DNA from: Eledone cirrhosa
Lineage: Eukaryota
Assembly: GCA_964016885.1 (NCBI GenBank)
Contig: OZ024757.1
Span: forward strand, 30,938,001 to 31,002,000
Direction of reading: 5' to 3'
DNA length: 64,000 nucleotides
A program made the position numbers and the translations under genes. This document shows positions 12,038-24,159 of this stretch, one piece after another; the first letter of the stretch is position 1; every line of letters begins with the position of its first letter. The notes beneath the pieces were generated by a model. The model had not been told where the DNA came from. It saw nothing but the letters and a program-made list of their open reading frames with translations, and did not search any database.

Positions 12038-12142
12038 CACACACACTCATAATACATATATTTATATATATATGAATATATACAATATATATATATATAC
12101 ATATATATATATATGAATATATATATATATACATACATATAT

Positions 12143-15100
12143 AATTAAGTTAAAGATGTACATCCATATATGTATACTGAAATACTAGTATGTATATGAA
12201 TACACACACGTATACATATGTAGATGTACCAAGTTTTTTTCACTGGTCACTTTACTGTGAGTGGCCAGCTATTCTGTATGTAAACACACAGACAAACCGG
12301 TTTTTAGAGTCATACTGGTTTTTGAGGAAACACCTTTCCTCTATTCTCCAGAAAGCCAGACAAGGAATATTGAACTAGTTTCGTTGTTGTTACAACTCAT
12401 CAGCAATATTTACCTATCTTCCGGCCTCTCTAGAGAATCGTAAAAGCACATATCGTTATATGCTTTTTCTATGAAAATTAGTAGTGGGCAGACTAATCCG
12501 CACAGAGTGTGAGTAAGTACCGGTTCAACGGAGACGATAAAAACAAATAACGAAACGAAATTAAATTTCGTTTCGTTTGTAACTCACTTTTGTATGACTG
12601 ACGCTTAAACAATTAAGTTAAAGATGTACATCCATATATGTATACTGAAATACTAGTATGTATATGAATACACACACGTATACATATGTAGATGTACCAA
12701 GTTTTTTTCACTGGTCACTTTACTGTGAGTGGCCAGCTATTCTGTATGTAAACACACAGACAAACCGGTTTTTAGAGTCATACTGGTTTTTGAGGAAACA
12801 CCTTTCCTCTATTCTCCAGAAAGCCAGACAAGGAATATTGAACTAGTTTCGTTGTTGTTACAACTCATCAGCAATATTTACCTATCTTCCGGCCTCTCTA
12901 GAGAATCGTAAAAGCACATATCGTTATATGCTTTTTCTATGAAAATTAGTAGTGGGCAGACTAATCCGCACAGAGTGTGAGTAAGTACCGGTTCAACGGA
13001 GACGATAAAAACAAATAACGAAACGAAATTAAATTTCGTTTCGTTTGTAACTCACTTTTGTATGACTGACGCTTAAACAATTAAGTTAAAGATGTACATC
13101 CATATATGTATACTGAAATACTAGTATGTATATGAATACACACACGTATACATATGTAGATGTACCAAGTTTTTTTCACTGGTCACTTTACTGTGAGTGG
13201 CCAGCTATTCTGTATGTAAACACACAGACAAACCGGTTTTTAGAGTCATACTGGTTTTTGAGGAAACACCTTTCCTCTATTCTCCAGAAAGCCAGACAAG
13301 GAATATTGAACTAGTTTCGTTGTTGTTACAACTCATCAGCAATATTTACCTATCTTCCGGCCTCTCTAGAGAATCGTAAAAGCACATATCGTTATATGCT
13401 TTTTCTATGAAAATTAGTAGTGGGCAGACTAATCCGCACAGAGTGTGAGTAAGTACCGGTTCAACGGAGACGATAAAAACAAATAACGAAACGAAATTAA
13501 ATTTCGTTTCGTTTGTAACTCACTTTTGTATGACTGACGCTTAAACAATTAAGTTAAAGATGTACATCCATATATGTATACTGAAATACTAGTATGTATA
13601 TGAATACACACACGTATACATATGTAGATGTACCAAGTTTTTTTCACTGGTCACTTTACTGTGAGTGGCCAGCTATTCTGTATGTAAACACACAGACAAA
13701 CCGGTTTTTAGAGTCATACTGGTTTTTGAGGAAACACCTTTCCTCTATTCTCCAGAAAGCCAGACAAGGAATATTGAACTAGTTTCGTTGTTGTTACAAC
13801 TCATCAGCAATATTTACCTATCTTCCGGCCTCTCTAGAGAATCGTAAAAGCACATATCGTTATATGCTTTTTCTATGAAAATTAGTAGTGGGCAGACTAA
13901 TCCGCACAGAGTGTGAGTAAGTACCGGTTCAACGGAGACGATAAAAACAAATAACGAAACGAAATTAAATTTCGTTTCGTTTGTAACTCACTTTTGTATG
14001 ACTGACGCTTAAACAATTAAGTTAAAGATGTACATCCATATATGTATACTGAAATACTAGTATGTATATGAATACACACACGTATACATATGTAGATGTA
14101 CCAAGTTTTTTTCACTGGTCACTTTACTGTGAGTGGCCAGCTATTCTGTATGTAAACACACAGACAAACCGGTTTTTAGAGTCATACTGGTTTTTGAGGA
14201 AACACCTTTCCTCTATTCTCCAGAAAGCCAGACAAGGAATATTGAACTAGTTTCGTTGTTGTTACAACTCATCAGCAATATTTACCTATCTTCCGGCCTC
14301 TCTAGAGAATCGTAAAAGCACATATCGTTATATGCTTTTTCTATGAAAATTAGTAGTGGGCAGACTAATCCGCACAGAGTGTGAGTAAGTACCGGTTCAA
14401 CGGAGACGATAAAAACAAATAACGAAACGAAATTAAATTTCGTTTCGTTTGTAACTCACTTTTGTATGACTGACGCTTAAACAATTAAGTTAAAGATGTA
14501 CATCCATATATGTATACTGAAATACTAGTATGTATATGAATACACACACGTATACATATGTAGATGTACCAAGTTTTTTTCACTGGTCACTTTACTGTGA
14601 GTGGCCAGCTATTCTGTATGTAAACACACAGACAAACCGGTTTTTAGAGTCATACTGGTTTTTGAGGAAACACCTTTCCTCTATTCTCCAGAAAGCCAGA
14701 CAAGGAATATTGAACTAGTTTCGTTGTTGTTACAACTCATCAGCAATATTTACCTATCTTCCGGCCTCTCTAGAGAATCGTAAAAGCACATATCGTTATA
14801 TGCTTTTTCTATGAAAATTAGTAGTGGGCAGACTAATCCGCACAGAGTGTGAGTAAGTACCGGTTCAACGGAGACGATAAAAACAAATAACGAAACGAAA
14901 TTAAATTTCGTTTCGTTTGTAACTCACTTTTGTATGACTGACGCTTAAACAATTAAGTTAAAGATGTACATCCATATATGTATACTGAAATACTAGTATG
15001 TATATGAATACACACACGTATACATATGTAGATGTACCAAGTTTTTTTCACTGGTCACTTTACTGTGAGTGGCCAGCTATTCTGTATGTAAACACACAGA

Positions 15101-18100
15101 CAAACCGGTTTTTAGAGTCATACTGGTTTTTGAGGAAACACCTTTCCTCTATTCTCCAGAAAGCCAGACAAGGAATATTGAACTAGTTTCGTTGTTGTTA
15201 CAACTCATCAGCAATATTTACCTATCTTCCGGCCTCTCTAGAGAATCGTAAAAGCACATATCGTTATATGCTTTTTCTATGAAAATTAGTAGTGGGCAGA
15301 CTAATCCGCACAGAGTGTGAGTAAGTACCGGTTCAACGGAGACGATAAAAACAAATAACGAAACGAAATTAAATTTCGTTTCGTTTGTAACTCACTTTTG
15401 TATGACTGACGCTTAAACAATTAAGTTAAAGATGTACATCCATATATGTATACTGAAATACTAGTATGTATATGAATACACACACGTATACATATGTAGA
15501 TGTACCAAGTTTTTTTCACTGGTCACTTTACTGTGAGTGGCCAGCTATTCTGTATGTAAACACACAGACAAACCGGTTTTTAGAGTCATACTGGTTTTTG
15601 AGGAAACACCTTTCCTCTATTCTCCAGAAAGCCAGACAAGGAATATTGAACTAGTTTCGTTGTTGTTACAACTCATCAGCAATATTTACCTATCTTCCGG
15701 CCTCTCTAGAGAATCGTAAAAGCACATATCGTTATATGCTTTTTCTATGAAAATTAGTAGTGGGCAGACTAATCCGCACAGAGTGTGAGTAAGTACCGGT
15801 TCAACGGAGACGATAAAAACAAATAACGAAACGAAATTAAATTTCGTTTCGTTTGTAACTCACTTTTGTATGACTGACGCTTAAACAATTAAGTTAAAGA
15901 TGTACATCCATATATGTATACTGAAATACTAGTATGTATATGAATACACACACGTATACATATGTAGATGTACCAAGTTTTTTTCACTGGTCACTTTACT
16001 GTGAGTGGCCAGCTATTCTGTATGTAAACACACAGACAAACCGGTTTTTAGAGTCATACTGGTTTTTGAGGAAACACCTTTCCTCTATTCTCCAGAAAGC
16101 CAGACAAGGAATATTGAACTAGTTTCGTTGTTGTTACAACTCATCAGCAATATTTACCTATCTTCCGGCCTCTCTAGAGAATCGTAAAAGCACATATCGT
16201 TATATGCTTTTTCTATGAAAATTAGTAGTGGGCAGACTAATCCGCACAGAGTGTGAGTAAGTACCGGTTCAACGGAGACGATAAAAACAAATAACGAAAC
16301 GAAATTAAATTTCGTTTCGTTTGTAACTCACTTTTGTATGACTGACGCTTAAACAATTAAGTTAAAGATGTACATCCATATATGTATACTGAAATACTAG
16401 TATGTATATGAATACACACACGTATACATATGTAGATGTACCAAGTTTTTTTCACTGGTCACTTTACTGTGAGTGGCCAGCTATTCTGTATGTAAACACA
16501 CAGACAAACCGGTTTTTAGAGTCATACTGGTTTTTGAGGAAACACCTTTCCTCTATTCTCCAGAAAGCCAGACAAGGAATATTGAACTAGTTTCGTTGTT
16601 GTTACAACTCATCAGCAATATTTACCTATCTTCCGGCCTCTCTAGAGAATCGTAAAAGCACATATCGTTATATGCTTTTTCTATGAAAATTAGTAGTGGG
16701 CAGACTAATCCGCACAGAGTGTGAGTAAGTACCGGTTCAACGGAGACGATAAAAACAAATAACGAAACGAAATTAAATTTCGTTTCGTTTGTAACTCACT
16801 TTTGTATGACTGACGCTTAAACAATTAAGTTAAAGATGTACATCCATATATGTATACTGAAATACTAGTATGTATATGAATACACACACGTATACATATG
16901 TAGATGTACCAAGTTTTTTTCACTGGTCACTTTACTGTGAGTGGCCAGCTATTCTGTATGTAAACACACAGACAAACCGGTTTTTAGAGTCATACTGGTT
17001 TTTGAGGAAACACCTTTCCTCTATTCTCCAGAAAGCCAGACAAGGAATATTGAACTAGTTTCGTTGTTGTTACAACTCATCAGCAATATTTACCTATCTT
17101 CCGGCCTCTCTAGAGAATCGTAAAAGCACATATCGTTATATGCTTTTTCTATGAAAATTAGTAGTGGGCAGACTAATCCGCACAGAGTGTGAGTAAGTAC
17201 CGGTTCAACGGAGACGATAAAAACAAATAACGAAACGAAATTAAATTTCGTTTCGTTTGTAACTCACTTTTGTATGACTGACGCTTAAACAATTAAGTTA
17301 AAGATGTACATCCATATATGTATACTGAAATACTAGTATGTATATGAATACACACACGTATACATATGTAGATGTACCAAGTTTTTTTCACTGGTCACTT
17401 TACTGTGAGTGGCCAGCTATTCTGTATGTAAACACACAGACAAACCGGTTTTTAGAGTCATACTGGTTTTTGAGGAAACACCTTTCCTCTATTCTCCAGA
17501 AAGCCAGACAAGGAATATTGAACTAGTTTCGTTGTTGTTACAACTCATCAGCAATATTTACCTATCTTCCGGCCTCTCTAGAGAATCGTAAAAGCACATA
17601 TCGTTATATGCTTTTTCTATGAAAATTAGTAGTGGGCAGACTAATCCGCACAGAGTGTGAGTAAGTACCGGTTCAACGGAGACGATAAAAACAAATAACG
17701 AAACGAAATTAAATTTCGTTTCGTTTGTAACTCACTTTTGTATGACTGACGCTTAAACAATTAAGTTAAAGATGTACATCCATATATGTATACTGAAATA
17801 CTAGTATGTATATGAATACACACACGTATACATATGTAGATGTACCAAGTTTTTTTCACTGGTCACTTTACTGTGAGTGGCCAGCTATTCTGTATGTAAA
17901 CACACAGACAAACCGGTTTTTAGAGTCATACTGGTTTTTGAGGAAACACCTTTCCTCTATTCTCCAGAAAGCCAGACAAGGAATATTGAACTAGTTTCGT
18001 TGTTGTTACAACTCATCAGCAATATTTACCTATCTTCCGGCCTCTCTAGAGAATCGTAAAAGCACATATCGTTATATGCTTTTTCTATGAAAATTAGTAG

Positions 18101-20358
18101 TGGGCAGACTAATCCGCACAGAGTGTGAGTAAGTACCGGTTCAACGGAGACGATAAAAACAAATAACGAAACGAAATTAAATTTCGTTTCGTTTGTAACT
18201 CACTTTTGTATGACTGACGCTTAAACAATTAAGTTAAAGATGTACATCCATATATGTATACTGAAATACTAGTATGTATATGAATACACACACGTATACA
18301 TATGTAGATGTACCAAGTTTTTTTCACTGGTCACTTTACTGTGAGTGGCCAGCTATTCTGTATGTAAACACACAGACAAACCGGTTTTTAGAGTCATACT
18401 GGTTTTTGAGGAAACACCTTTCCTCTATTCTCCAGAAAGCCAGACAAGGAATATTGAACTAGTTTCGTTGTTGTTACAACTCATCAGCAATATTTACCTA
18501 TCTTCCGGCCTCTCTAGAGAATCGTAAAAGCACATATCGTTATATGCTTTTTCTATGAAAATTAGTAGTGGGCAGACTAATCCGCACAGAGTGTGAGTAA
18601 GTACCGGTTCAACGGAGACGATAAAAACAAATAACGAAACGAAATTAAATTTCGTTTCGTTTGTAACTCACTTTTGTATGACTGACGCTTAAACAATTAA
18701 GTTAAAGATGTACATCCATATATGTATACTGAAATACTAGTATGTATATGAATACACACACGTATACATATGTAGATGTACCAAGTTTTTTTCACTGGTC
18801 ACTTTACTGTGAGTGGCCAGCTATTCTGTATGTAAACACACAGACAAACCGGTTTTTAGAGTCATACTGGTTTTTGAGGAAACACCTTTCCTCTATTCTC
18901 CAGAAAGCCAGACAAGGAATATTGAACTAGTTTCGTTGTTGTTACAACTCATCAGCAATATTTACCTATCTTCCGGCCTCTCTAGAGAATCGTAAAAGCA
19001 CATATCGTTATATGCTTTTTCTATGAAAATTAGTAGTGGGCAGACTAATCCGCACAGAGTGTGAGTAAGTACCGGTTCAACGGAGACGATAAAAACAAAT
19101 AACGAAACGAAATTAAATTTCGTTTCGTTTGTAACTCACTTTTGTATGACTGACGCTTAAACAATTAAGTTAAAGATGTACATCCATATATGTATACTGA
19201 AATACTAGTATGTATATGAATACACACACGTATACATATGTAGATGTACCAAGTTTTTTTCACTGGTCACTTTACTGTGAGTGGCCAGCTATTCTGTATG
19301 TAAACACACAGACAAACCGGTTTTTAGAGTCATACTGGTTTTTGAGGAAACACCTTTCCTCTATTCTCCAGAAAGCCAGACAAGGAATATTGAACTAGTT
19401 TCGTTGTTGTTACAACTCATCAGCAATATTTACCTATCTTCCGGCCTCTCTAGAGAATCGTAAAAGCACATATCGTTATATGCTTTTTCTATGAAAATTA
19501 GTAGTGGGCAGACTAATCCGCACAGAGTGTGAGTAAGTACCGGTTCAACGGAGACGATAAAAACAAATAACGAAACGAAATTAAATTTCGTTTCGTTTGT
19601 AACTCACTTTTGTATGACTGACGCTTAAACAATTAAGTTAAAGATGTACATCCATATATGTATACTGAAATACTAGTATGTATATGAATACACACACGTA
19701 TACATATGTAGATGTACCAAGTTTTTTTCACTGGTCACTTTACTGTGAGTGGCCAGCTATTCTGTATGTAAACACACAGACAAACCGGTTTTTAGAGTCA
19801 TACTGGTTTTTGAGGAAACACCTTTCCTCTATTCTCCAGAAAGCCAGACAAGGAATATTGAACTAGTTTCGTTGTTGTTACAACTCATCAGCAATATTTA
19901 CCTATCTTCCGGCCTCTCTAGAGAATCGTAAAAGCACATATCGTTATATGCTTTTTCTATGAAAATTAGTAGTGGGCAGACTAATCCGCACAGAGTGTGA
20001 GTAAGTACCGGTTCAACGGAGACGATAAAAACAAATAACGAAACGAAATTAAATTTCGTTTCGTTTGTAACTCACTTTTGTATGACTGACGCTTAAACAA
20101 TTAAGTTAAAGATGTACATCCATATATGTATACTGAAATACTAGTATGTATATGAATACACACACGTATACATATGTAGATGTACCAAGTTTTTTTCACT
20201 GGTCACTTTACTGTGAGTGGCCAGCTATTCTGTATGTAAACACACAGACAAACCGGTTTTTAGAGTCATACTGGTTTTTGAGGAAACACCTTTCCTCTAT
20301 TCTCCAGAAAGCCAGACAAGGAATATTGAACTAGTTTCGTTGTTGTTACAACTCATCA
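12143..20358 (-). mobile_element. Left arm of a 468-bp tandem array (~17.6 units) of a hammerhead-ribozyme retrozyme-like element; ribozyme on the minus strand
   Basis: Exact 468-bp periodicity (aattaagttaaag at 12143, 12611, ...; ORF track repeats every 468). Each unit contains the reverse complement of AATATTG-CTGATGA-GTTGT-AACA-ACAAC-GAAA-CTAGTT-CAATATT. Left end abuts a (TA)n tract. Confidence 0.9.
12366..12410 (-). ncRNA. Type I hammerhead ribozyme (representative left-arm copy; 17 intact copies up to 19854-19898)
   Basis: Plus strand aatattgaactagtttcgttgttgttacaactcatcagcaatatt is the exact reverse complement of the motif at 20503-20547. Confidence 0.9.
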
Positions 20359-23300
20359 TTCGTTATTTGTTTTTATCGTCTCCGTTGAACCGGTACTTAC
20401 TCACACTCTGTGCGGATTAGTCTGCCCACTACTAATTTTCATAGAAAAAGCATATAACGATATGTGCTTTTACGATTCTCTAGAGAGGCCGGAAGATAGG
20501 TAAATATTGCTGATGAGTTGTAACAACAACGAAACTAGTTCAATATTCCTTGTCTGGCTTTCTGGAGAATAGAGGAAAGGTGTTTCCTCAAAAACCAGTA
20601 TGACTCTAAAAACCGGTTTGTCTGTGTGTTTACATACAGAATAGCTGGCCACTCACAGTAAAGTGACCAGTGAAAAAAACTTGGTACATCTACATATGTA
20701 TACGTGTGTGTATTCATATACATACTAGTATTTCAGTATACATATATGGATGTACATCTTTAACTTAATTGTTTAAGCGTCAGTCATACAAAAGTGAGTT
20801 ACAAACGAAACGAAATTTAATTTCGTTTCGTTATTTGTTTTTATCGTCTCCGTTGAACCGGTACTTACTCACACTCTGTGCGGATTAGTCTGCCCACTAC
20901 TAATTTTCATAGAAAAAGCATATAACGATATGTGCTTTTACGATTCTCTAGAGAGGCCGGAAGATAGGTAAATATTGCTGATGAGTTGTAACAACAACGA
21001 AACTAGTTCAATATTCCTTGTCTGGCTTTCTGGAGAATAGAGGAAAGGTGTTTCCTCAAAAACCAGTATGACTCTAAAAACCGGTTTGTCTGTGTGTTTA
21101 CATACAGAATAGCTGGCCACTCACAGTAAAGTGACCAGTGAAAAAAACTTGGTACATCTACATATGTATACGTGTGTGTATTCATATACATACTAGTATT
21201 TCAGTATACATATATGGATGTACATCTTTAACTTAATTGTTTAAGCGTCAGTCATACAAAAGTGAGTTACAAACGAAACGAAATTTAATTTCGTTTCGTT
21301 ATTTGTTTTTATCGTCTCCGTTGAACCGGTACTTACTCACACTCTGTGCGGATTAGTCTGCCCACTACTAATTTTCATAGAAAAAGCATATAACGATATG
21401 TGCTTTTACGATTCTCTAGAGAGGCCGGAAGATAGGTAAATATTGCTGATGAGTTGTAACAACAACGAAACTAGTTCAATATTCCTTGTCTGGCTTTCTG
21501 GAGAATAGAGGAAAGGTGTTTCCTCAAAAACCAGTATGACTCTAAAAACCGGTTTGTCTGTGTGTTTACATACAGAATAGCTGGCCACTCACAGTAAAGT
21601 GACCAGTGAAAAAAACTTGGTACATCTACATATGTATACGTGTGTGTATTCATATACATACTAGTATTTCAGTATACATATATGGATGTACATCTTTAAC
21701 TTAATTGTTTAAGCGTCAGTCATACAAAAGTGAGTTACAAACGAAACGAAATTTAATTTCGTTTCGTTATTTGTTTTTATCGTCTCCGTTGAACCGGTAC
21801 TTACTCACACTCTGTGCGGATTAGTCTGCCCACTACTAATTTTCATAGAAAAAGCATATAACGATATGTGCTTTTACGATTCTCTAGAGAGGCCGGAAGA
21901 TAGGTAAATATTGCTGATGAGTTGTAACAACAACGAAACTAGTTCAATATTCCTTGTCTGGCTTTCTGGAGAATAGAGGAAAGGTGTTTCCTCAAAAACC
22001 AGTATGACTCTAAAAACCGGTTTGTCTGTGTGTTTACATACAGAATAGCTGGCCACTCACAGTAAAGTGACCAGTGAAAAAAACTTGGTACATCTACATA
22101 TGTATACGTGTGTGTATTCATATACATACTAGTATTTCAGTATACATATATGGATGTACATCTTTAACTTAATTGTTTAAGCGTCAGTCATACAAAAGTG
22201 AGTTACAAACGAAACGAAATTTAATTTCGTTTCGTTATTTGTTTTTATCGTCTCCGTTGAACCGGTACTTACTCACACTCTGTGCGGATTAGTCTGCCCA
22301 CTACTAATTTTCATAGAAAAAGCATATAACGATATGTGCTTTTACGATTCTCTAGAGAGGCCGGAAGATAGGTAAATATTGCTGATGAGTTGTAACAACA
22401 ACGAAACTAGTTCAATATTCCTTGTCTGGCTTTCTGGAGAATAGAGGAAAGGTGTTTCCTCAAAAACCAGTATGACTCTAAAAACCGGTTTGTCTGTGTG
22501 TTTACATACAGAATAGCTGGCCACTCACAGTAAAGTGACCAGTGAAAAAAACTTGGTACATCTACATATGTATACGTGTGTGTATTCATATACATACTAG
22601 TATTTCAGTATACATATATGGATGTACATCTTTAACTTAATTGTTTAAGCGTCAGTCATACAAAAGTGAGTTACAAACGAAACGAAATTTAATTTCGTTT
22701 CGTTATTTGTTTTTATCGTCTCCGTTGAACCGGTACTTACTCACACTCTGTGCGGATTAGTCTGCCCACTACTAATTTTCATAGAAAAAGCATATAACGA
22801 TATGTGCTTTTACGATTCTCTAGAGAGGCCGGAAGATAGGTAAATATTGCTGATGAGTTGTAACAACAACGAAACTAGTTCAATATTCCTTGTCTGGCTT
22901 TCTGGAGAATAGAGGAAAGGTGTTTCCTCAAAAACCAGTATGACTCTAAAAACCGGTTTGTCTGTGTGTTTACATACAGAATAGCTGGCCACTCACAGTA
23001 AAGTGACCAGTGAAAAAAACTTGGTACATCTACATATGTATACGTGTGTGTATTCATATACATACTAGTATTTCAGTATACATATATGGATGTACATCTT
23101 TAACTTAATTGTTTAAGCGTCAGTCATACAAAAGTGAGTTACAAACGAAACGAAATTTAATTTCGTTTCGTTATTTGTTTTTATCGTCTCCGTTGAACCG
23201 GTACTTACTCACACTCTGTGCGGATTAGTCTGCCCACTACTAATTTTCATAGAAAAAGCATATAACGATATGTGCTTTTACGATTCTCTAGAGAGGCCGG

Positions 23301-24114
23301 AAGATAGGTAAATATTGCTGATGAGTTGTAACAACAACGAAACTAGTTCAATATTCCTTGTCTGGCTTTCTGGAGAATAGAGGAAAGGTGTTTCCTCAAA
23401 AACCAGTATGACTCTAAAAACCGGTTTGTCTGTGTGTTTACATACAGAATAGCTGGCCACTCACAGTAAAGTGACCAGTGAAAAAAACTTGGTACATCTA
23501 CATATGTATACGTGTGTGTATTCATATACATACTAGTATTTCAGTATACATATATGGATGTACATCTTTAACTTAATTGTTTAAGCGTCAGTCATACAAA
23601 AGTGAGTTACAAACGAAACGAAATTTAATTTCGTTTCGTTATTTGTTTTTATCGTCTCCGTTGAACCGGTACTTACTCACACTCTGTGCGGATTAGTCTG
23701 CCCACTACTAATTTTCATAGAAAAAGCATATAACGATATGTGCTTTTACGATTCTCTAGAGAGGCCGGAAGATAGGTAAATATTGCTGATGAGTTGTAAC
23801 AACGAAACTAGTTCAATATTCCTTGTCTGGCTTTCTGGAGAATAGAGGAAAGGTGTTTCCTCAAAAACCAGTATGACTCTAAAAACCGGTTTGTCTGTGT
23901 GTTTACATACAGAATAGCTGGCCACTCACAGTAAAGTGACCAGTGAAAAAAACTTGGTACATCTACATATGTATACGTGTGTGTATTCATATACATACTA
24001 GTATTTCAGTATACATATATGGATGTACATCTTTAACTTAATTGTTTAAGCGTCAGTCATACAAAAGTGAGTTACAAACGAAACGAAATTTAATTTCGTT
24101 TCGTTATTTGTTTT
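20359..24114 (+). mobile_element. Right, inverted arm of the same 468-bp array (8 units + 15 nt); ribozyme on the plus strand
   Basis: Reverse complement of the left-arm unit from ttcgttatttg (20359) to ttcgttatttgtttt (24114), followed by a (TA)-rich tract. Last unit has a 3-nt (aac) deletion. Confidence 0.9.
20503..20547 (+). ncRNA. Type I hammerhead ribozyme (representative right-arm copy; repeats every 468 bp, 8 copies)
   Basis: Stem I AATATTG/CAATATT, core CTGATGA (20510-20516), stem II GTTGT/ACAAC with AACA loop, GAAA (20531-20534), palindromic minimal stem III ACTAGT, GUU triplet with predicted cut after 20540. Confidence 0.9.
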
Positions 24115-24159
24115 CATACATATATATATATATATATATTCATATATATATATATATGA

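Follow-up and report, generated by a model that had tools for sequence, protein, structure and literature searches.

Animal retrozymes and Penelope-like elements (PLEs) are the closest described systems to the array analyzed here. For retrozymes, stable predicted folds, long target duplications, and a proposed PLE-driven copying of circles into tandem cDNA have been published (PMC7229834), and a link to the pLTRs of PLEs has been drawn from distribution and phylogeny, with arrays ascribed to local amplification (bioRxiv 10.64898/2026.07.22.740005). Inverted copies and one-sided tails of 30 to 40 bp are known features of PLEs (PMC8557442), and the PLE tail has been explained in vitro by two internal reverse transcriptase (RT) start sites (PMC11167929). 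How retrozymes move in animals and why PLEs leave inverted copies with a one-sided tail are open questions in the available text of these papers. A stable fold is expected of a retrozyme and is not news alone; the main interest of the present locus is its insertion footprint, which makes the copying mechanism of retrozymes and PLEs testable.

The window, a 64,000-nt stretch of an Eledone cirrhosa contig (OZ024757.1), carries a 468-nt unit in 17.56 minus-strand and 8.03 plus-strand head-to-tail copies, all inside (AT)n. The left arm (positions 12143 to 20358, minus strand; 17.56 copies with no differences) and the right arm (20359 to 24114, plus strand; 8.03 copies) meet head to head at 20358/20359 without overlap or insert. 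An 11-bp target-site duplication borders them on the plus strand, with its left copy in an (AT)n tract (12132 to 12142) and the identical 11 bases after the right end (24115 to 24125), followed by (AT)n. No window copy has a substitution, and the sole difference is a 3-nt deletion in the last right-arm copy. The left arm ends outward at a position here called start site B and the right arm at start site A. One unit, taken as 20405 to 20872 on the plus strand, has a multibranched predicted fold, a GC content of 0.36, and no LTR structure. The longest open frame in the unit is 57/65 codons, and none exceeds 65 codons in the multimer.

A putative type I hammerhead ribozyme was identified at 20503 to 20547, on the plus strand only in the Rfam alignment. 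It consists of stem I (20503-20509/20541-20547), CUGAUGA (20510-20516), stem II (20517-20530), GAAA (20531-20534), and a 2-bp palindromic stem III. The predicted cut falls between 20540 and 20541, after GUU, where older subfamilies have GUC. The match to Hammerhead_HH9 (RF02275; 37.7 bits; E value, 9e−8) is below the gathering score of 52, and at the gathering threshold the whole window gave no Rfam matches. The unit resembles HH9 in its type I core and in the alignment of the stem I bulge and differs in that stem III is cut down to two base pairs. Matches to miRNA and sRNA families at the E-value level were rejected as chance matches to AT-rich hairpins. Self-cleavage of the monomer may be weak given the 2-bp stem III, the GUU triplet, and a core that is partly paired in the minimum free energy (MFE) structure of the unit. 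Hammerheads with a short stem III may need dimers, as reported for axolotl retrozymes (PMC7229834), and in one study eight of nine frog retrozymes were without cleavage.

The first-pass annotation, made from the letters alone, had described the whole unit as a multibranched, strand-specific RNA structure. Linear folding of the plus strand gave an MFE of −153.7 kcal/mol compared with −99.2 ± 5.4 for shuffled sequences (z = −10.1), and the minus strand gave −126.9 kcal/mol (z = −6.1); on neither strand was any of 100 shuffles as good. Circular folding returned −151.1 (z = −10.0) for the plus strand versus −123.7 (z = −5.2) for the minus strand, with 40 shuffles each. These predictions confirm the fold as real but strand-biased rather than strictly strand-specific, as the minus strand also beats its shuffles.

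All six hairpins named in that annotation, together with the extension of stem I, were found where it had placed them. Five of the six had mean pair probabilities of 0.89 to 0.98 on the plus strand, with aaaagcatat/atgtgctttt (20446 to 20471) at 0.98. The sixth, ctggccact/agtgaccag, had been put forward as a hairpin of the ribozyme strand, but it has A-C on that strand and forms on the minus strand only (mean pair probability, 0.08 on plus versus 1.00 on minus). The extended stem I is predicted as a rod that encloses the hammerhead (20475 to 20570, plus strand); in place of the ~35 bp proposed for it, the MFE contains 28 pairs over a length of ~35 nt. The UA bulge described in this stem, at the site of a putative tertiary contact with loop II, is present at 20501-20502. 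Of 42 family units, 41 retain it, as do all five aligned units of a sister family (see below). Further plus-strand elements are a hairpin unnamed in the annotation (20407 to 20445), which is kept in the sister family and is a hotspot of A>G changes (20410, 20414 to 20416, and 20419); gaggaaa/tttcctc (20572 to 20589), with double-sided changes in four of its seven pairs across families; and a multiloop domain (20598 to 20789), which holds hairpins at 20621-20640 and 20684-20755 and whose closing stem (20598-20605/20782-20789) has two double-sided changes in the sister family.

The expected asymmetry between strands was recovered. The plus strand was more stable by −27.4 kcal/mol compared with a shuffle gap of −4.2 ± 4.8 (z = −4.9; −1.6 to −5.3 in seven other units), a null that is lenient because shuffled sequences hold little structure, and G-U counts were therefore weighted more. 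With G-U pairs forbidden, the two strands reached −108.7 (plus) and −106.5 (minus) and the gap was almost gone; the gap therefore stems from G-U pairs, in agreement with the source proposed for it. The accompanying statement that many imperfect positions are G-U on this strand was too strong: the excess exists but is weak, with 14 G-U pairs of probability >0.5 on the plus strand versus nine on the minus strand, and the six named hairpins contain three G-U and two A-C. Three of the 13 G-U pairs (20410, 20414, and 20415) go back to recent A>G changes that are confined to five to seven loci.

An alignment of 42 family units (88 to 100% identical) was used to look for selection on the fold. Within the family, double-sided changes occurred in three of 154 pairs (0 to 2 in slid controls), and 98.7% of cells pair. 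Substitutions common to at least two loci were at paired positions in 28 of 60 cases versus 66% expected (P = 0.002), and 45 of 54 singleton substitutions were at paired positions. A sister family of ~430 nt with 67% identity showed the same helix order when folded (40 of 1,096 candidates scored). Between the two families 24 of the 154 pairs had changed on both sides, a number reached in none of 500 shuffles and in slid controls only as 2 to 8; this alignment has 12 sequences (seven family and five sister units), whose relatedness makes the shuffle test too favorable, it misplaces several helices, and the signal amounts in essence to a single split. The covariation suggested as a check on the fold was thus present, most clearly in stem I, the hairpin at 20572-20589, and the multiloop stem 20598-20605/20782-20789. 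Shared changes in stems kept the pair in 14 cases versus seven that gave A-C (P = 0.09), and the G-U versus A-C argument from which RNA-level selection on this polarity had been proposed is weak alone. In these comparisons, selection on the RNA fold of plus polarity is nevertheless supported, mainly by the avoidance of stems by shared changes and by the cross-family double-sided changes.

The sister family, sampled at 30 loci (L144 to L173, G000) and at L035:7790-8190, has a CUGACGA core, a GUA triplet, and A and B ends homologous to those of the 468-nt family. At L053:5317-5660 one arm runs from the 468-nt family into sister-family sequence, possibly a recombinant unit.

The G-U strand bias could also be mostly mutational and not due to selection for wobble pairs: paired RNA would have undergone A-to-I editing, and reverse transcription would have fixed the edits. 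This possibility competes with the G-U selection argument and not with the model of mobility. ADAR prefers a UAG context, and the A>G change at 20419, which lies in such a context, was fixed independently in seven loci of different subfamilies. The three window G-U pairs noted above are clustered A>G changes, and locus L184 has four A>G changes in both arms. However, the bulk of fixed changes had 19 A>G versus 16 T>C distinct events (seven versus six among private ones), and the excess of A>G over T>C looked for there was not found; editing also cannot account for the double-sided changes or for the deficit of shared changes in stems. Editing as the main source of the bias is therefore regarded as somewhat doubtful. 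Edits that became fixed on reverse transcription may still account for a share of the G-U excess. Among all family copies, copy-private G>A changes exceeded C>T on the ribozyme strand (86 versus 50; context-corrected z = 2.3) in both arm orientations, an excess that matches what deamination of single-stranded cDNA would give.

A search of the genome with the unit identified at least 259 matches (38 of 233 candidates scored). A pattern for the A-end junction with (AT)n had 2246 genome matches (control, 0), and a B-end pattern had 698 redundant matches. The insertions were studied in 130 regions. Of these, 31 were unit matches or the window; a further 80 belong to the first 100 A-end matches on contig C1, and the remaining 19 were taken at B-end matches or suspected exceptions. 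The first 90 regions contained 62 insertions with paired A and B ends and one with two B ends, and the 40 further regions contained 22 with A and B; no insertion had two A ends. Across the 130 regions, A+B pairing was therefore found in 84 of 85 paired insertions, with L178 and L179 looking like a single duplicated event. The sole B+B insertion among the 85 lies at L085:650-2285. A B partner was present at 50 of the 80 loci selected by their A end, and at the other 30 no partner was detected in the 4.6 to 6.5 kb fetched.

The two ends are ~70 nt apart in the unit. Start site B (20764 to 20777, plus strand) lies within a weak small hairpin, with outer arm ends at 20770 to 20776 in unit terms, and the surrounding region (20760 to 20802) had one shared variant in 43 nt versus 59 in 468. 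Start site A (20833 to 20844, plus strand) is the end of a mostly unpaired U-rich linker, with the outer arm end at 20844 in unit terms. The 69 to 74 nt between them (20771 to 20844, plus strand) form a "tail" at one end of each insertion and include a hairpin at 20804-20832. Both sites have a similar U-rich motif followed by CGUC (window positions 20766-20782 and 20831-20848), which suggests a duplicated initiation signal.

No junction running from plus to minus was seen in BLAST maps of 90 regions; the arms were always divergent, and both target 3′ ends were therefore extended with DNA complementary to the ribozyme strand. The divergent arms are the firmest evidence for the polarity of the RNA, and by both its hammerhead and its insertion geometry the unit has the plus strand as its putative RNA. 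Dispersed insertions of the family have target duplications of >4 bp. Duplications of 11 to 33 bp with marker bases were identified in 11 of 63 pairs (11 bp in the window) and are hidden in the remaining pairs because of pure (AT)n. The arms reach 27 units, with a median of <2 units.

These dispersed insertions also bear on a further reading, in which a satellite or MITE-like element carries the hairpins as inverted repeats at the DNA level or the array is an assembly artefact. Both strands do fold better than shuffles, identical copies can be misassembled, and the window copy number comes from the assembly alone. Against this stand an intact hammerhead on one strand and more than 2000 dispersed insertions, which end at fixed positions, differ in haplotype, and come with target duplications of their own, by which such a reading is refuted for the 468-nt family as a whole and left extremely improbable for the array.

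The form of the template was approached through the predicted cut site and the alleles of the two arms. Among 62 arms of each kind, 48 A arms and 47 B arms ran through the cut site, and arm 5′ ends were not enriched there (six of 124 within 10 nt versus ~5.6 expected by arithmetic). Of 536 read-throughs of the cut site, 517 were clean, 17 had one substitution, two had a 1-nt deletion, and none had an insert at the cut. When a multicopy arm was fixed for a derived allele, the opposite arm had it too in 70 of 73 cases. Fixation in a single locus, with absence from the other sampled loci, was seen for 32 alleles, often in both inverted arms. The clean read-through and the alleles shared between arms therefore fit one circular template, used again and again for copying from both ends.

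Non-LTR RTs are known to jump between templates, and a cleaved linear monomer on which the RT jumps from end to end across the cut could in principle give multimers; templated inserts at several arm junctions fit such jumping. It is made highly unlikely by read-throughs with no inserts and only two 1-nt deletions near the cut, by the lack of a pile-up of 5′ ends at the cut, and by haplotype-pure arrays.

An alternative with the same PLE machinery and polarity needs no circle: the template would be a linear multimer, transcribed from an array already in place and left uncleaved, and long arrays would grow later by unequal crossover. The clean read-through fits this alternative as well. Hammerhead mutants had no effect on PLE insertion in vitro (PMC11167929), and local amplification has been proposed for arrays (bioRxiv 10.64898/2026.07.22.740005). 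Variants recurring with periods of 2, 2, 3, and 6 units in four arrays (L049, L063, L041-L043/C3_113, and L074) are also in its favor and show later duplication or multimeric templates there. However, the 32 private alleles, fixed in every covered copy of their loci, would need a one-unit bottleneck, and the youngest haplotype already forms 25-copy arrays with no substitutions, yet the median arm is <2 units. A linear multimer as the general template is accordingly judged unlikely, and the single circle is preferred.

The candidate enzyme was sought among PLEs of the same genome. Starting from a PLE fragment next to L035, a young family was found whose L105 copy has an intact 775-amino-acid ORF (150 of 22621 candidates scored), in which RVT_1 (E value, 2e−6; under the cutoff) and GIY-YIG (E value, 3e−6) domains were identified; Pfam found no families in two PLE fragments of L035. 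A CxxxxCxxC linker in the ORF suggests the Neptune clade, for which a Cys linker motif has been described (PMC8557442). Insertions of the L105 family (L104 to L123) lie in (AT)n, the same microsatellite target as that of the 468-nt retrozyme, and eight of these 20 loci have an inverted arm, with a tail of ~60 nt at one end and no tail at the other. Neptune-clade elements are thus a candidate source of the enzyme.

The L105 pLTR showed no sequence relation to the 468-nt unit, and no autonomous element with a pLTR resembling the unit was found in the one PLE family examined (L105). By eye, a minimal hammerhead-like motif was seen in the pLTR of this element (L105:2362-5290 for the PLE). The sister-family unit was rejected as the pLTR of the L105 PLE, with only one true junction in the genome. 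At L035:7790-8976 (minus strand) lies a unique chimera, where a sister-family unit follows directly on the 3′ end of a Neptune-type ORF; a template switch between the two RNAs may have produced it. At least four other PLE-type RT/GIY-YIG copies, 38 to 54% identical to L105, were observed (L067:2430-4676, L083:1601-3823, L136:1858-3012, and L124:3251-3436), two of which directly abut retrozyme arms; they showed no similarity to the unit beyond the insertion itself, and none was assigned as its partner.

Overall, the 468-nt family is probably a non-coding hammerhead retrozyme with a plus-strand RNA of conserved, branched predicted fold, likely self-cleaving and circularizing, and likely copied into (AT)n by a Neptune-type Penelope RT from both ends of a staggered cut. 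The back-to-back chains with two fixed starts suggest that a Penelope-type enzyme copied one RNA circle repeatedly from both cut ends. The plus strand of the unit would be transcribed, fold, cleave itself, and ligate into a circle. After a staggered cut in (AT)n, each target 3′-OH would prime on the plus RNA, one at A and the other at B; both enzymes would then roll around the one circle for up to tens of turns, and the two cDNAs, with little or no homology at their junction, would end up joined head to head. The fold would be of use both for ribozyme activity and for presenting the two start sites to the enzyme.

A more specific version is more tentative, with somewhat less than an even chance: two PLE RTs may roll around one folded, sometimes edited, 468-nt circle whose fold sets the sites at a distance of 70 nt in such a way that A always falls to one target strand and B to the other. 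Counting against the assignment of strands in both versions, an anole PLE had no difference in start sites between strands in vitro (PMC11167929). If true, the two-RT reading would prove rolling-circle retrotransposition from genomic data and account in general for two features of Penelope elements, the inverted copy and the tail at one end.

A viroid or viroid-like replicon was rejected as an account of the unit, which has a hammerhead on the plus strand only, a branched fold, and DNA copies with marks of retrotransposition. L1 twin priming, in which the two target strands prime on RNA of the same polarity, gives a 5′ inversion. The present insertions are alike in their apparent two-strand priming on one RNA polarity; unlike L1, the second priming site is fixed here and the 5′ end of the first arm is not tied to it.

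By sequence features, the unit fits the animal non-LTR retrozymes of coral, mussel, and axolotl (PMC7229834; bioRxiv 10.64898/2026.07.22.740005), with tandem non-coding units, a type I hammerhead, low GC (36% here), a highly self-paired, stable predicted fold, a long target duplication (>4 bp), and co-occurrence with PLEs. At 468 nt it is longer than the 170- to 400-nt RNAs of PMC7229834 and within the 51- to 972-bp range of bioRxiv 10.64898/2026.07.22.740005. Two-armed inverted retrozyme insertions with two fixed starts are not described in the available text of either source ("inverted" occurs 0 times in that of PMC7229834). A literature search, with subscription journals and supplements outside its coverage, found, among the papers listed, no paper on two-armed retrozyme insertions and none combining rolling circle, twin priming, and tandem arrays. 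With the Neptune and Poseidon PLEs (PMC8557442; PMC11167929) the insertions share an inverted 5′-truncated copy, a tail at one end, two internal RT starts, AT-rich or (TA)n targets, and a hammerhead in the repeat. They differ from those PLEs in a unit without an ORF, a tail of 69 to 74 nt versus 30 to 40, arms that are multimers of up to 27 units, and A+B pairing in 84 of 85 cases. The available text of the cited papers lacks the PLE insertion signature on retrozyme arrays, the strict A+B pairing, and the alleles shared across arms. The 468-nt family offers a substrate that is young, abundant, and defined in sequence and start sites, and its genome also contains a candidate clade for the enzyme. 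Both the movement of retrozymes and the inverted, one-sided-tail copies of PLEs are therefore open to in vitro tests that combine a purified RT with a 468-nt circle.
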